Below are positions 456 through 61,563 of a stretch of 64,000 bases of DNA, piece after piece; within the stretch, counting starts at the first letter, position 1, and every line of letters begins with the position of its first letter. The position numbers were made by a program, and so were the translations under genes. The DNA comes from a phage: sequence record PZ496581.1. One strand, written 5' to 3'. The notes under the pieces were generated by a model. That model saw only the letters and a list, made by a program, of their open reading frames with translations. It was not told the origin of the DNA and searched no databases.

Positions 456-671
456 TCAGTGTTGATTGTAAACGGCTTTTTCTACGCTTTTAACGTAATT
501 GGTATAGTCTTCCTGTTCGTACGAGTGTAAGACCAAGAACAGAACTAATAGTTCATTATAGACTAAAGCCTCACGCTCACGTTCGGCCTCTACTACGTTC
601 TGAAGATTATGACTCATATTGTTCCTTATAACTATCAATGTAGTCCTGTATGTCAAAGAATGACATTTCAT
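456..671 (-). CDS. hypothetical small protein (start probably internal ATG near 617)
   Basis: ORF overlaps the end of the upstream gene; only distal part likely coding. Confidence 0.25.
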   Translation of the reverse strand: MKCHSLTYRTTLIVIRNNMSHNLQNVVEAEREREALVYNELLVLFLVLHSYEQEDYTNYVKSVEKAVYNQH

Positions 672-906
672 ATTCTAGGACATTAAGAGCCTGTTCTTCG
701 GTGTAGTCAGAACCAAATACAATAGTGATTTCACCGGGTTTAGAATGACTGAAATCAACACTAAACTCAATTCGAGAACAGACTTCATCTTCCATATCTA
801 CGATAACACTACGACACACTTCTCGGTTAACCTGATAAAGCTCTGCAAGTTCTTCACATCGAATAACAAGTTCAGTGGCAGGATTTTCTTTTATTTTAGT
901 AAGCAT
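607..906 (-). CDS. hypothetical acidic protein (arn-region)
   Basis: 99 aa, strongly acidic; position between asiA and motA where T4 carries arn; no sequence-level confirmation. Confidence 0.4.
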   Translation of the reverse strand: MLTKIKENPATELVIRCEELAELYQVNREVCRSVIVDMEDEVCSRIEFSVDFSHSKPGEITIVFGSDYTEEQALNVLEYEMSFFDIQDYIDSYKEQYES

Positions 907-980
907 AGTCTTTACCCTTATGTTTTTGTTTGCGTTTAGATTGAAGTTCTGATTTCTTTTTGTCCTTATGGACAGAAGCC

Positions 981-1208
981 TTATTGAAATCGTGTTTTGC
1001 TACAAGATTGTTCATAATGATTTATAACCTCATTTAAACATTTATCGGTAAAAGAAAACTTTTTAGCCACAGAACATTCGATAATGTGCTCTTTCAAATC
1101 TTTAGAGTCGGTATATCCCATCTCAGTAATAAAGTGGCGAATTAAAGCTTTATTCTTATCATTAACAGAATTAAAATAATCTGCTTTAGAATCAATTATT
1201 CTCATCAT
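981..1208 (-). CDS. hypothetical protein
   Basis: 75 aa ORF, start overlaps stop of upstream ORF. Confidence 0.4.
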   Translation of the reverse strand: MMRIIDSKADYFNSVNDKNKALIRHFITEMGYTDSKDLKEHIIECSVAKKFSFTDKCLNEVINHYEQSCSKTRFQ

Positions 1209-1934: not shown

Positions 1935-2260
1935 TTAAACCATCCTTTAATACGTTGCCAAATAGATTTTTGTGCTTGTTTATTTACACCAATCGAACGA
2001 ATAACCGGTTGTGACTGCTGATATTCTTTATAATCTTCTTTATAGATTTCGTAAGCTGCATCAACAAATGAACTGATCGCTGCCATGTAGTTTTTACGAA
2101 GGCCAAATGGCGCGTCATTATTTTCACGAATAACCATATATTGGCCTGCTTTAATCTTTACAATTGTCCCTAAATAAGCCCCGTGGTACCAAATATCCCA
2201 TCCTTCCTGAGTAGGTTCTGCACATTTACGAAGTTCGTTAATAATATTCAGCTTATTCAT
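1931..2260 (-). CDS. hypothetical protein
   Basis: 109 aa ORF immediately downstream of motA. Confidence 0.5.
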
Positions 2261-2270
2261 TATGTATTCC

Positions 2271-2903
2271 TCACAGTACGTTAGTTACAAGGGTAATGAT
2301 TTCTTTAGACACATTAGGGAAGTCAATGTAAGTATATTTACCACCGATCTTAATCTTAACATCATTTTCAAGAGAAGTAAACAGCTTTGATTCAGTTTCT
2401 GACATGTTGTATGCAAAGATTCTAAGAGAACCATCTCGACGAATTTCGATCTGACGAATACCTAGAACTCGTTTTGCAAATCGAACTTCCAAGTTACTAC
2501 GGTTTTCACCAATTTCTTTAACTTCAACTTTATCTTTAATATTTTCAAAAACAAAGTTTGCTAATTCATGCATTTCAGGAGTAACTCCACGTGCTTTTCT
2601 AGTGTTACGTTTCTGAAGAAGTTCTGGAGCATTTTCTTGAGCAAATAAGTCTGCAGCTTTTTGGATAATATCCATTGCTTCGCCTGTTGCTACAAGTCCA
2701 TCACCGGATTTTTCGACTAAACCTTTCTTAATCAATACACCAATGTTAGAGTTAACAACCGATGCATTGTATTCCGCTTCCAGAGCTTCACGGACATTGG
2801 CAGCAGTGGTGAAGTTGTTCTTAATGATATAAACCATTATTGCAGCAGTTTTTTCATTCAGAGCGTTTTCAGAAGCTTTGATGATGTAAGTAACTTTAGA
2901 CAT
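2271..2903 (-). CDS. motA: middle-transcription activator MotA
   Basis: 210 aa; N-terminus MSKVTYIIKAS...NSNIGVLIKKGLVEKSGDGL matches T4 MotA as recalled; early promoter and SD directly upstream. Confidence 0.85.
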   Translation of the reverse strand: MSKVTYIIKASENALNEKTAAIMVYIIKNNFTTAANVREALEAEYNASVVNSNIGVLIKKGLVEKSGDGLVATGEAMDIIQKAADLFAQENAPELLQKRNTRKARGVTPEMHELANFVFENIKDKVEVKEIGENRSNLEVRFAKRVLGIRQIEIRRDGSLRIFAYNMSETESKLFTSLENDVKIKIGGKYTYIDFPNVSKEIITLVTNVL

Positions 2904-2938
2904 TTTATTTCTCCAAATTAGTATTTGTTTTGATAGGT

Positions 2939-2970
2939 CTATAATATCATGTTTGAAGCAAAAGTAAACT
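2939..2970 (-). promoter_or_regulatory. sigma70-type early promoter (motA)
   Basis: Minus strand GTTTAC - 17 nt - TATTAT with TGn extension. Confidence 0.6.
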
Positions 2971-3007
2971 TTATTTTGGGCTCTTTTTCCAAAAGCCCTG
3001 GTAAAAT

Positions 3008-3223
3008 TTACAAACTCATTTCTTTAATAAGGCCAATAAGTTTTGCCTTTTTAGAACGAAGCTTTTCTAAACGATGTCCATTTGAACCGCGAACCACTAA
3101 AGAATTGATTTCAACTTCTAAGAAATTTAATTCTTCAACAAGTGCTTTACGGGGAGCATTCATACCAGGTTTAACTTTACCGAAACGAGTAGTTGTGTTT
3201 TGGGTTAATTTCATTTTAGACAT
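3008..3223 (-). CDS. hypothetical basic protein
   Basis: 71 aa; shares promoter-leader-MSK start cassette with motA. Confidence 0.5.
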   Translation of the reverse strand: MSKMKLTQNTTTRFGKVKPGMNAPRKALVEELNFLEVEINSLVVRGSNGHRLEKLRSKKAKLIGLIKEMSL

Positions 3224-3261
3224 TTTATTTCTCCAATTTGGTTGTTTTGTTTTGATAGGTC

Positions 3262-3292
3262 TATAATATCATGTTTGAAGCACATGTAAACT
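3262..3292 (-). promoter_or_regulatory. sigma70-type early promoter
   Basis: Duplicate of motA promoter cassette. Confidence 0.6.
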
Positions 3293-3304
3293 GTTTTGTG
3301 AGAA

Positions 3305-3332
3305 AAATGCACAAAAGGGAGCCGAAGCTCCC
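3305..3332 (-). terminator. rho-independent terminator after gene 52
   Basis: GGGAGC-UUCG-GCUCCC hairpin then U-rich tract. Confidence 0.6.
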
Positions 3333-3408
3333 TAATCATGTTTGTCCAACCAATACAGCCAAATCACTAGTGCAGCTATTGCACCGAGAAATCCTAAGGC
3401 TAGGGCAC

Positions 3409-4734
3409 TCAAAGTGCCTCCAAGTCTTTAGTGTACTCTATCACAACATCAGTAGACTTCCAATACTCATTTTCTTCTTTCTTAGCTTTAGCTTCTTCTG
3501 CTAGTTTACGTGCTTCATCGGAAGTGATATGGAAGATGTTAAGACCTACCAGTTTATCGACATGTTCTTTATACATTTCGATTTGTGCTAGCTCTTCAGT
3601 CAAAGCTTTACGAGTCTTGCCCTGAATCACAATTTCGCCACTGATAACTTTTTTGATGAAGTGTGCCTTAGCAAAAGCAAGTTTAAATGCTTTTTCAGAT
3701 TCAAGGATTTTATTGTCAATACGTTTCTGAACGTAAGTCTTACGGACTTCAACAAAATCTTTGATTAAGTCCACTACGTTATCGTAGACCGCTAATTTAC
3801 CCTTTTCATTAATCACTGTGATGTTTTGTGAACGACGTTCGATGAGACTAAAATCTTTCATGATTTTTTCATGACGTAGCTCTTCATCATCAGGAAGCGA
3901 GTACTCTTTACGGAACTTCACCTTAAACCCAAAGCCGTGTTCACCACAATCATCTTCCCATGAGATTAGACCTTTGTCTTCCAACGGGTCAAGAACCTTA
4001 CTCACATACGTTTCACGGTCGAATTTATATGGGATTTCAGTTATCTGCATTTGAGTGCGAGATGTGAACTTATACGTTCCGTGAATCTCATAACGCCCAT
4101 CAACTTCATGTACTTCACCACGGAATTCCGGGAATTCAACTTTTGGCTTAGTGACATTTTTACCTTGAAGAGCTTGTAATACAGCCTTTTTTACCGATTT
4201 AAAACTATGAGGCAGAATATTTGTTGCGTAACCGGTTGCAATACCAGAGACGCCATTCAAAAGAACTGTCGGAATAATAGGAAGATAGAATTTTGGTGGA
4301 ATGTGTTCTTTATCTTCATGAGCTGGAGCATATTCAGTATCTTTATATACGTTATAGAAATTTTTACTTACACGAGCAAAAATATAACGAGATGCTGCAG
4401 CTTTTTGGACTGTTCGAGAACCAAAGTTGCCTTGGCCATCTAACAGTGGATAGTTGTTGTTCCATGTGTTAGCCATCAATGCACCTGCATCTTGTGCAGA
4501 ATATTCACCATGGTGATAACCTAAATCTGCAACACCGCCTGCAATTGACGCAAGTTTATGAAATTTTTCTTTATTACCACGAGCCAAATCTAACGCACGA
4601 TGAACCACAAAACGTTGAACCGGCTTAAATCCATCAATCATGTTTGGGATTGCACGGTTTTCAACGGTGTACATCGCATATGCTAAGGCTTCGTTATCAA
4701 TAATACTTTTTAGATTACGAGAATTCAATTGCAT
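3409..4734 (-). CDS. 52: DNA topoisomerase II medium subunit (GyrA-like)
   Basis: 441 aa; active-site region ...AYAMYTVENRAIPNMIDGFKPVQR...; T4 gp52 size and position. Confidence 0.9.
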   Translation of the reverse strand: MQLNSRNLKSIIDNEALAYAMYTVENRAIPNMIDGFKPVQRFVVHRALDLARGNKEKFHKLASIAGGVADLGYHHGEYSAQDAGALMANTWNNNYPLLDGQGNFGSRTVQKAAASRYIFARVSKNFYNVYKDTEYAPAHEDKEHIPPKFYLPIIPTVLLNGVSGIATGYATNILPHSFKSVKKAVLQALQGKNVTKPKVEFPEFRGEVHEVDGRYEIHGTYKFTSRTQMQITEIPYKFDRETYVSKVLDPLEDKGLISWEDDCGEHGFGFKVKFRKEYSLPDDEELRHEKIMKDFSLIERRSQNITVINEKGKLAVYDNVVDLIKDFVEVRKTYVQKRIDNKILESEKAFKLAFAKAHFIKKVISGEIVIQGKTRKALTEELAQIEMYKEHVDKLVGLNIFHITSDEARKLAEEAKAKKEENEYWKSTDVVIEYTKDLEAL

Positions 4735-4738
4735 ATTT

Positions 4739-4879
4739 TCACCATATTAATGAACGAATAACCATTATAACATCTGAAATGAAAAGCACTACTTGGATTA
4801 GTCCAAACATCACACCATAGTACAGAACCGTAAGCAACAACAAGAGCCCGAAGGCTCCTGCTAAGATTTTCTTAATCAT
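4739..4879 (-). CDS. small hydrophobic peptide (46 aa)
   Basis: Hand-translated MIKKILAGAFGLLLLLTVLYYGVMFGL...; TAATG overlap with upstream peptide; below ORF-track cutoff. Confidence 0.3.
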   Translation of the reverse strand: MIKKILAGAFGLLLLLTVLYYGVMFGLIQVVLFISDVIMVIRSLIW

Positions 4880-5830: not shown

Positions 5831-5859
5831 CTATACCATAATCCTACCTTGATGTAAAC
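5831..5859 (-). promoter_or_regulatory. sigma70-type early promoter
   Basis: GTTTAC - 18 nt - TATAGT. Confidence 0.5.
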
Positions 5860-60469: not shown

Positions 60470-61471
60470 TTATTTCAGTAAAGTTACTTCAGAGATTTCC
60501 TCCCAACCATCTTTATCAGTTGAAATAAAATCTGCTACATAAAGAGCCGTACGTAATGATACATTGCGAAGACGAGATACGTTAGCCTTCATCCAGGACA
60601 ATGCTTTATACGTTTCTGCATCCGTCAGACCACGTTTCTGCATCATGTCAGTAGATAATATTACATCTTCAACTCGAACCATAATCTCTTCATTAGAGTG
60701 TACTCCAAGGTCGAGATACACTGAACGAGATACTAAAGCTTGAAGGTGTGGAGCAAGTTTCGAACCCCGTTCTAACTCTTTATCGATATCAACGTTTGTA
60801 ATGAAAACGATAGTACCTTCAAACACAAATTCTTTATCAATACCCTTATCATCGAGATAAGATGACGCAGTGCTCCAACAAACTTTGCGTTTATCTCCGG
60901 TATCTAATGCTGCTTTAAGAAGGTTCAAGATATCCATATCCGAGAATACGTCAACGTCATCGATTAAGAGAACGCTGTCTGCATCACGGTTGAGCCAAAG
61001 TTGTTCGTAAAGGCCAATACCAGAGATTTTACCATTAATGCTTTTGTATTTGATGAAACCATTATCATTAGCATTATTAAGTGCTTTATCCAGAGAATAC
61101 GTCTTACCAATACCAGCTGCACCTGAAATAATGAGTGAACGAATTTTGCCATCGATAATGCCATTCGTCATCATGTTCATTACTTTAAAGCGTTTGTTGA
61201 TACGAGTTTTCATATCTTCAGTGCTTTCAACAACTGCAACTGGTGATGTCTCAACTCCTTCCATTACGATGTCTGATTTGAAGACCCATACTCCACGTTC
61301 AGAACCATCAATCATAACGAAAATTTTACCATCACCTAAGTGGGAACATTCAGGATTAAGCTTTGCTGGGAACCAGGTCTTTGTGGCAACATAAGAACCA
61401 GAGATTTCGTTATTACGATAGATACCTTTTTTGATTTGAACGTTGAACATTTTATTCTCCAATTTACTCAT
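60470..61471 (-). CDS. P-loop ATPase (AAA-like)
   Basis: 333 aa; Walker A ISGAAGIGKTYS, Walker B VLLIDDVD. Confidence 0.55.
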   Translation of the reverse strand: MSKLENKMFNVQIKKGIYRNNEISGSYVATKTWFPAKLNPECSHLGDGKIFVMIDGSERGVWVFKSDIVMEGVETSPVAVVESTEDMKTRINKRFKVMNMMTNGIIDGKIRSLIISGAAGIGKTYSLDKALNNANDNGFIKYKSINGKISGIGLYEQLWLNRDADSVLLIDDVDVFSDMDILNLLKAALDTGDKRKVCWSTASSYLDDKGIDKEFVFEGTIVFITNVDIDKELERGSKLAPHLQALVSRSVYLDLGVHSNEEIMVRVEDVILSTDMMQKRGLTDAETYKALSWMKANVSRLRNVSLRTALYVADFISTDKDGWEEISEVTLLK

Positions 61472-61486
61472 TTCGTTTCGATAGGT

Positions 61487-61517
61487 CTATAATAACATAT
61501 CCTAAAAGCATGTACAC
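61487..61517 (-). promoter_or_regulatory. sigma70-type early promoter
   Basis: GTGTAC -35, TATTAT -10. Confidence 0.5.
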
Positions 61518-61530
61518 TACTTTTTAAAAA

Positions 61531-61563
61531 TATTTTAACCCCCTAAAGGGACCCGAAGGTCCC
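61531..61563 (-). terminator. possible terminator
   Basis: GGGACC-UUCG-GGUCCC hairpin; interrupted U tract. Confidence 0.4.

Follow-up and report, generated by a model that had tools for sequence, protein, structure and literature searches.

Recombining promoter cassettes of the PeSL type probably bracket a small ORFan gene between gene 52 and motA in an RB69-like phage

How do two adjacent genes of a compact phage genome come to share almost the same promoter, the same leader, the same ribosome-binding site and even the same first three codons? This question is raised by the locus in front of motA, the activator of middle-mode transcription, in a 64-kb stretch of phage DNA (hereafter the window). 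Over positions 2200..4800 the window is 98–99% identical to many genomes of Mosigvirus, i.e., RB69-like T-even phages (BEU50, ZQ3, HX01, JS09, and APCEc01 are examples), and is assigned to this genus. Gene 52, a 71-codon open reading frame (ORF71) and motA are all encoded here on the minus strand. Gene 52 (3409..4734) specifies the medium subunit of topoisomerase II (Pfam DNA_topoisoIV, 2.8e-77), carries the gp52 label also in records 98–99% identical to the window, and represents the conserved upstream neighbour of the cassette pair. It is followed by a putative mini-ORF read from the sequence (3332..3412, minus strand), encoding 26 hydrophobic amino acids, with a TTG start overlapping the gp52 stop codon (TTTGA) and its own stop codon abutting a terminator hairpin; its position is that of T4 motA.1, and an ORF is annotated at the same position in T4, pEK20, and QL01. 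ORF71 (3008..3223; MSKMKLTQ...) precedes motA as the genes are transcribed and is an ORFan that falls into PHROG family phrog_6200 of unknown function (1.6e-39). The identity of motA itself (2271..2903), proposed in the preceding sequence-only reading, agrees with Pfam domains MotA_activ (2.4e-39) and MotCF (2.1e-8) and with the annotation of near-identical records. The cassette pair is thus flanked by two conserved genes, 52 and motA, in the long arm of early genes, with many similar promoters nearby, such as those at 5835 and 6347, and apparently not in a classic hyperplastic region.

The same reading had described a duplicated cassette composed of promoter, leader, Shine–Dalgarno (SD) sequence and start codon in front of both motA and the 71-aa ORF, spanning regulatory as well as coding sequence. 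The alignment bears this out on the minus strand, with coordinates shifted by 1–2 nt only: both ORFs start with ATG TCT AAA, and homology reaches codon 3. Copy 1, preceding motA, occupies 75 nt from the -35 hexamer to codon 3 of motA (2895..2969) and comprises the -35 element GTTTAC (2969..2964), TG (2949..2948), the -10 element TATTAT (2946..2941), a predicted transcription start near 2934, SD GGAG (2914..2911), ATG (2903..2901), and codons 2–3 TCT AAA (2900..2895). Copy 2, preceding ORF71, occupies 77 nt from the -35 hexamer to codon 3 of that ORF (3215..3291), its respective elements being GTTTAC (3291..3286), TG (3271..3270), TATTAT (3268..3263), a predicted start near 3256, GGAG (3234..3231), ATG (3223..3221), and TCT AAA (3220..3215). 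The start-to-start spacing of the copies is 322/320 nt. In global alignment 70 of the 77 columns are identical, and identity is not confined to the -10 and -35 hexamers, being concentrated in two exact blocks: 37 nt covering promoter spacer, -10 element and start region (TGCTTCAAACATGATATTATAGACCTATCAAAACAAA at 2924..2960 and 3246..3282) and 22 nt covering SD, ATG and codons 2–3 (TTGGAGAAATAAAATGTCTAAA at 2895..2916 and 3215..3236). Such identity is patchy, since 8–10 diverged nucleotides with a 2-nt indel separate the blocks, and two mismatches (TTTT vs ATGT) lie directly 3′ of the -35 hexamer. With up to three mismatches allowed, both a 36-nt query taken from the longer block and the 22-nt block itself have exactly two sites in the 64-kb window (0.00 and 0.01 sites, respectively, expected from shuffles). 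The pair also obtained the top score, 65, among 171 pairs formed by 19 early-promoter-like sites of the window, while the next pair scored 52 and the median was 17. Identity over the stretch from the -10 element to approximately +8, TATTATAGACCTATCA, which recurs in many early promoters of the phage, is generic early-promoter similarity; what is specific to the pair is identity in the spacer, the remaining leader, the SD spacer, and codons 2–3.

Both copies have the form GTTTAC-N17-TGaTATTAT characteristic of T4-type early promoters, i.e., GTTTAC, a 17-nt spacer, TGn and TATTAT, and both carry C residues at -3 to -1. As in T4 and RB69 early promoters (consensus of Miller et al., 2003; Nolan et al., 2006, PMC1524935; Hinton, 2010, PMC2988021), GTTTAC at -36 to -31 and the 17-nt spacer are accompanied by an extended TGn, a TAnnnT -10 element, an A/T-rich upstream region and C at -3 to -1, and promoters of this kind are found in front of conserved early genes and novel ORFs alike. 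Ordinary representatives, however, share consensus positions only, whereas the pair considered here shares non-consensus positions of spacer, leader and coding sequence as well. With +1 positions placed according to the T4/RB69 early-promoter consensus, which is C-rich at -3 to -1 (PMC1524935), leaders of 33 nt (copy 2) and 31 nt (copy 1) are predicted, in both of which GGAG stands 7 nt before ATG. RNA folding gave them no more structure than their shuffled versions (z = +0.2 and +0.35), ruling out a structured leader or operator hairpin, and covariance models of Rfam found no match at E ≤ 1 on either strand of 2200..3600 and hence no known RNA element in the leaders. A middle promoter was also considered and rejected: the MotA box, (a/t)(a/t)(a/t)TGCTTtA, needs to be 12 ± 1 bp upstream of the -10 element, where it replaces the -35 element (PMC2988021), whereas TTTTGCTTCA in copy 1 is only 7 bp from TATTAT and GTTTAC is present in addition. 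By analogy with established T4 biology both cassettes would be expected to provide strong immediate-early promoters and efficient unstructured initiation regions.

Each promoter is preceded by a hairpin that begins 0–10 nt past a stop codon, and A/T-rich stretches fill the interval between hairpin and -35 element. The stem-loop upstream of copy 2 (3303..3332, minus strand) consists of GGGAGC-TTCG-GCTCCC (3332..3317) and the U-rich tail TTTTGTGCATTTTT (3316..3303); the RNA fold of the 3332..3317 hairpin has an energy of -15.5 kcal/mol (z = -3.4), the records of SA79RD and ATK47 give the element as a rho-independent terminator, and by these sequence features it is a probable intrinsic terminator of gene 52 transcription. 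The stem-loop upstream of copy 1, GGGCTTTT-GGAAA-AAGAGCCC (2978..2998, minus strand), directly follows the ORF71 stop codon and folds with -15.2 kcal/mol (z = -3.65). No U-tract comes after it; it is listed as a terminator by WebGeSTer in SA79RD and is kept together with ORF71 in Dhakavirus and Tequatrovirus carriers.

The occurrence of the 71-aa ORF in related phages, which the sequence-only reading had proposed to check, turned out to be variable. Pattern scanning of IMG/VR for ORF71 loci retrieved only the genomes of JS98 and VR5, and the GenBank phage collection was used instead. There ORF71 is present in 94 phage records, including about 76 of Mosigvirus (at least 90% amino acid identity), a Dhakavirus group with 72–77% identity (JS98, VR5, Bp7, C6, and IME08), and three of Tequatrovirus. 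It is missing from RB69 and about 90 other Mosigvirus records, i.e., approximately half of the records of this genus do without it. Vacant loci are of two types. The spacer between gene 52 and motA of RB69 contains one cassette, whose upstream half is that of window copy 2 while the leader is that of copy 1, and the same chimera is found in pEK20; sequence comparison places the crossover for this empty site within the 37-nt block. In AV118, a20, SSE1, O157tp3 (O157 typing phage 3), and p000y, the leader and SD block of copy 2 are retained and ATG TCT AAA is joined to codon 4 of motA (GTT ACT), which positions the apparent crossover within the 22-nt block. At full length the RB69-type junction exists essentially only in RB69, and the AV118-type junction is much commoner (about 93 records in the bands of at least 95% identity), with a single promoter copy in 60/60 records among the matches listed. 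The Dhakavirus QL01 is an equivalent chimera of the two JS98 copies. The empty sites are exact chimeras, with junctions inside exact blocks, and each empty form is one reciprocal crossover away from the occupied form; thus at most one of the Mosigvirus empty forms can be primordial and at least one must have been derived from an occupied locus.

All three states coexist within the species Mosigvirus JS09, represented by JS09 with ORF71, SSE1 with the AV118-type junction and pEK20 with the RB69-type junction. Over 590 nt of motA the window, possessing ORF71, has 7–8 differences from p000y and a20, which lack it, vs 14 from ATK47, which has it, and RB69 differs from O157tp3 by 4, so the ORF71 states are interleaved with respect to motA similarity (ECCR664 was left out of distance comparisons, since its indels break the ungapped comparison). 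Such interleaving would mean either that gain and loss recur or that the flanks recombine often, and flank similarity, which recombination may have scrambled, does not fix the number of independent events. A very short comparison of the AV118-type leader (13/19 vs 8/19 identities) weakly hints at an origin of this empty site by loss, loss and gain being indistinguishable from structure alone.

A composite element with these properties is already described for T4-type phages as PeSL, promoter-early stem-loop (Arbiol et al., 2010, PMC2839356; Comeau et al., 2014, PMC4122927). In the T4/PST group it consists of the promoter TTTACW-N17-TAYWAT with a hairpin just upstream and with SD and start codon at the 3′ end, while the stem-loop is preceded by an AT-rich region and by the stop codon that ends the upstream gene; the published description also comprises strong promoter activity, terminator or attenuator activity, excised mini-circles and a preference for hyperplastic regions (PMC2839356, PMC4122927). 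In the window the promoters read (G)TTTACT or (G)TTTACA, a 17-nt spacer and TATTAT with TG one base before the -10 element; hairpins 3332..3317 and 2998..2978 are upstream of them; at the 3′ end GGAG stands 7 nt before ATG and homology continues to codon 3; and the ORFan is replaced by single chimeric cassettes in RB69, pEK20, AV118, a20, SSE1, O157tp3, p000y, and QL01. The cassettes therefore show every sequence-level feature of PeSL. The likeness concerns the composite motif as such (hairpin, AT-rich region, sigma-70-like early promoter, SD and start codon), the flanking by two copies of an ORFan that is missing from close relatives with one chimera, as in the case of RB49 ORFan192 vs phi1, and the crossovers between the -10 element and ATG, as reported for PeSL mini-circles. 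The differences are the position, i.e., the gene 52–motA junction of Mosigvirus, Dhakavirus, and Tequatrovirus beside a conserved regulator and apparently not in a hyperplastic ORFan cluster, and the extension of homology and of one crossover class past ATG into codons 2–3, whereby the ORFan took the N-terminal tripeptide of motA.

Lambdoid morons, defined as ORFs with their own promoter and terminator, are thought to be acquired non-homologously and often differ in GC content. ORF71 resembles them in being small and accessory, in having a promoter to itself and hairpins on both sides, and in its variable presence between two conserved genes. In contrast to morons, it appears to be gained and lost via homologous recombination between repeated promoters and has co-diverged with its flanks; the same contrast with morons was drawn by Nolan et al., 2006 (PMC1524935).

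We take the arrangement to be a pair of recombining PeSL-type cassettes and not a one-off duplication, i.e., an instance of an already described phenomenon (PMC2839356, PMC4122927): a real feature, ordinary for T4-like phages, following a known mechanism and revealing no new one. Particular to this locus are the placement at motA, the homology extending into codons 2–3, two types of empty site, concerted evolution in two genera, and transfer across genera. As the explanation of the whole we consider it likely that the PeSL-type pair brackets ORF71, which entered between motA and its ancestral promoter, and that the copies recombine with each other. Each cassette, assembled from hairpin, AT-rich region, T4-type sigma-70 early promoter, short unstructured leader, GGAG and start codon, would have the gene that follows it transcribed in the immediate-early phase and translated efficiently. 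Comparison of the genomes shows the repeats to behave as substrates of homologous recombination, which homogenises the copies through exchange and gene conversion and is powered by the very active recombination system of the phage. The same homology permits deletion or re-insertion of a 320–322-bp unit made of ORF71 and one cassette, the crossovers being located either in the promoter block (37 nt) or in the SD/start-codon block (22 nt), and such a unit can also pass between phage genera; an excised circle is predicted to measure 320–322 bp. The locus is a well-documented natural example of how T4-like phages gain, lose and exchange small accessory genes without harming the neighbours, repeated promoter cassettes giving both expression signals and recombination homology; genomes in public collections include carriers of ORF71, precise empty sites of two different kinds and a case in which this ORF crossed from one genus to another.

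The age of the arrangement is indicated by comparison between genera. ORF71 of the window differs from that of JS98 in 62/216 nt (28.7%), and this divergence matches that of the Mosigvirus and Dhakavirus flanks (about 27% for motA and about 30% for the 3′ end of gp52), so the two-promoter tandem is most likely older than the split of Mosigvirus and Dhakavirus. Nevertheless, within one genome the copies agree without exception along 37 nt in Mosigvirus and 41 nt in JS98, and both share genus-specific bases in GCTT(C/T)AAAC and GATA(T/C)TATAG (GCTTCAAAC and GATATTATAG vs GCTTTAAAC and GATACTATAG). Strain variants following the -35 element also co-vary in both copies, being TTAT in VR5, TTCT in JS98, and TTTT in SA79RD; in other Mosigviruses, unlike SA79RD, these bases differ between the two copies. 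Strong selection on promoter function conserves sequence too, and it is only the co-varying sites, not identity by itself, that argue for conversion; they indicate gene conversion between paralogous cassettes as the probable source of the similarity.

An exchange of the same kind may be recorded in the start of ORF71. While motA begins with ATG TCT AAA in T4, Dhakavirus, and Mosigvirus, ORF71 begins with ATG AAT/AAC AAG ATG AAA (MNK) in Dhakavirus and Tequatrovirus, and only in Mosigvirus with ATG TCT AAA ATG AAA (MSK), placed after the SD spacer of motA. The simplest reading is that a conversion tract from the 5′ end of motA, running from its SD through the third codon, overwrote the start of ORF71 and changed MNK to MSK; in other words, ORF71 of Mosigvirus would begin as it does because the motA 5′ end was copied onto it. 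The same tract would have created the 22-nt homology which now constitutes the second crossover site. Recombination tracts can thereby enter coding sequence by a few codons and rewrite the N-terminus of an ORFan.

The identity of the copies may alternatively be ascribed mainly to selection, which would preserve a shared module of expression and decay composed of promoter strength, initiation region and a RegB/S1 site, so that ORF71 receives the short burst of synthesis typical for MotA and perhaps acts together with it in the early-to-middle switch. The RegB/S1 site of T4, GGAGAAUAAAA, with the general form GGAGRAYARAA, must be single-stranded (PMC1702504), and T4 motA mRNA is a good RegB substrate (PMC1702504, PMC2988021) whose burst expression matters (PMC2988021). 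The SD regions of both copies read GGAGAAAUAAA, close to this consensus: 9/11 positions of GGAGRAYARAA fit (1–6 and 9–11) while 7–8 deviate. They resemble the RegB/S1 targets of T4 early mRNAs (Durand et al., 2006, PMC1702504) in the GGAG SD, the A-rich run, the unstructured leader and the gene motA itself, and differ from them in sequence (GGAGAAAUAAA vs GGAGAAUAAAA/GGAGRAYARAA), the sites here being predicted ones. A gene for RegB is annotated in RB69 and is outside the window here. Since both SDs are GGAG followed by an A-rich run, the mRNAs of motA and ORF71 are probably inactivated by RegB/S1 a few minutes into infection, as T4 motA mRNA is. Selection for a shared module agrees with all this, with purifying selection on ORF71 and with its constant location next to motA. 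Yet in the Dhakavirus and Tequatrovirus carriers the leaders, SD spacers and codons 2–3 of ORF71 and motA differ from each other, so the gene pair can be maintained without identity of this part; about one in two Mosigvirus records manages without ORF71; many early genes have GGAG with an A-rich run, e.g., at the promoter near 61494; and conversion accounts better for the spacer variants, which look neutral and co-vary. We regard selection as an unlikely main explanation of the identity, possible as a contributing factor and not required. The narrower proposal, that the SD/start-codon block of Mosigvirus is a selected post-transcriptional operator (initiation region plus RegB/S1 site) tying ORF71 to the MotA burst, is quite improbable; if true, ORF71 would be a hitherto overlooked accessory factor serving either the early-to-middle transcription switch or the MotA/AsiA machinery.

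The very high identity of both exact blocks and the restriction of the MSK start to Mosigvirus might likewise suggest that the 5′ region of motA was tandemly duplicated just once, and recently, in this lineage, with no exchange since and with a similarity that simply reflects youth. Such a history appears very improbable: the two-promoter arrangement exists also in Dhakavirus, where the ORF is diverged to the extent of its flanks and hence old, the variants of VR5, JS98 and SA79RD change in both copies together, and the patchy identity with its indel is more readily produced by separate conversion tracts than by one duplication. That two unrelated promoters converged on the early-promoter consensus, with neither common origin nor exchange, is effectively refuted by the outlying rank of the pair among the 171 and by the chimeric single copies of relatives, which show real recombination between the copies, and is at odds with the non-consensus identity (17-nt spacer except for 2 nt, leader, SD spacer, and codons 2–3), even though phage early promoters do share long stretches (GTTTAC, TG, and TATTAT-AGACCTATCA) and those of T4 are known for an extended consensus (PMC2988021).

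The reading with recombining cassettes is further illustrated by the Tequatrovirus BGP (168.7 kb), in which ORF71 differs from that of the Dhakavirus VR5 in only 7/216 nt, while the flanks are T4-like (9/590 differences from T4 in motA and 5/400 in gp52). Dhakavirus-type sequence extends over ORF71, the hairpin and the -35 half of the next promoter, and the right-hand junction is inside the promoter spacer, so that the native T4 promoter and leader of motA now stand before ORF71 and the imported promoter stands before motA. The layout indicates that ORF71 has moved horizontally between genera and illustrates how an insertion looks prior to homogenisation. The claim of cross-genus transfer is based on the full-length BGP genome, as UoN_LDJ77_1 (111 kb) could be a chimeric assembly. 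In pEK20 a switch from Dhakavirus-like to Mosigvirus-like sequence is situated in the U-tract of the terminator.

As for the product of ORF71, the protein has no match in Pfam and no significant sequence match in PDB, and BFVD returned only its own orthologue. An AlphaFold2 model built from the single sequence (pLDDT 78) predicts a disordered N-terminus followed by a helical hairpin. The dN/dS of about 0.2 relative to the JS98 orthologue, which implies purifying selection, and a divergence at the level of the neighbouring genes mark ORF71 as a genuine gene that has diverged in step with its flanks. Some of the related records inspected carry no annotation for this ORF and the second promoter. 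For the purposes of annotation, an indel of 320–322 bp in alignments across this locus is biological and not an assembly error.

Dhakavirus-type ORF71, the 71-aa ORFan preceding motA, is carried by two T4-like (Tequatrovirus) genomes, BGP and UoN_LDJ77_1 (600..1020 in their gene 52-motA loci, L014 and L010, locus numbering), where it differs from its VR5 counterpart at 7 of 216 nt and is placed, together with its hairpin and half promoter, between the native T4 motA promoter and motA; the promoters flanking ORF71 in these two genomes are dissimilar. In the Mosigvirus pEK20 (L007, about 560..760), the end of gene 52, the following mini-ORF and the terminator hairpin are Dhakavirus-like, and Mosigvirus sequence resumes inside the terminator U-tract, this switch being a mosaic junction at the cassette boundary. 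The leader of Bp7 motA possesses an SD spacer (GGAGATACAAAATG) of the type preceding ORF71 in VR5, C6 and Bp7, unlike the usual Dhakavirus motA spacer, and this match suggests that conversion here ran the opposite way. The Bp7 record (L015, 1022..1613) splits motA into two annotated CDS, which may reflect a frameshift or sequencing error. In ECCR664 (L009), shortening of an A-run in ORF71 by 1 nt (AAAAAGG to AAAAGG) ends the match at residue 68; since its 134 kb record contains numerous indels, this deletion is likely a sequencing error.

The mini-ORF situated between gene 52 and the terminator hairpin in the window (3332..3412 (-)) would encode a hydrophobic 26-aa product (SALALGFLGAIAALVIWLYWLDKHD after the TTG start), its start codon overlapping the gene 52 stop as TTTGA. 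T4 motA.1 occupies the same position, as does a 34-aa ORF annotated in pEK20 and QL01. Several close relatives lack annotation of the mini-ORF.

A third early promoter (window ~61440..61540, -10 at ~61494 (-)) is followed by a leader similar to those of motA and ORF71, and its SD region coincides with the exact T4 RegB/S1 consensus GGAGAATAAAA. Downstream lies a 333-aa P-loop ORF in the position of RB69 nrdC.11; because its mechanical start (MSKLENK) falls within the promoter leader, the true start is probably MFNVQ. The early promoters with -10 elements at ~57987 (-) and ~16528 (-), separated by 41 kb, have in common an exact block of 35 nt (GTTTACAACCAAGGATGGTTGGAGTATAATGAAT...) and constitute the second most similar promoter pair window-wide; they too are candidates for recombining with, or converting, each other. 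A sub-family of early promoters is distinguished by a near-palindromic -10 region (AGGACTAT..TATAGTAGTCCTATC; -10 at ~5835, ~6347 and ~26619 (-)). Immediately upstream of the ndd region, two of its promoters flank small ORFs of 66 aa and 87 aa.
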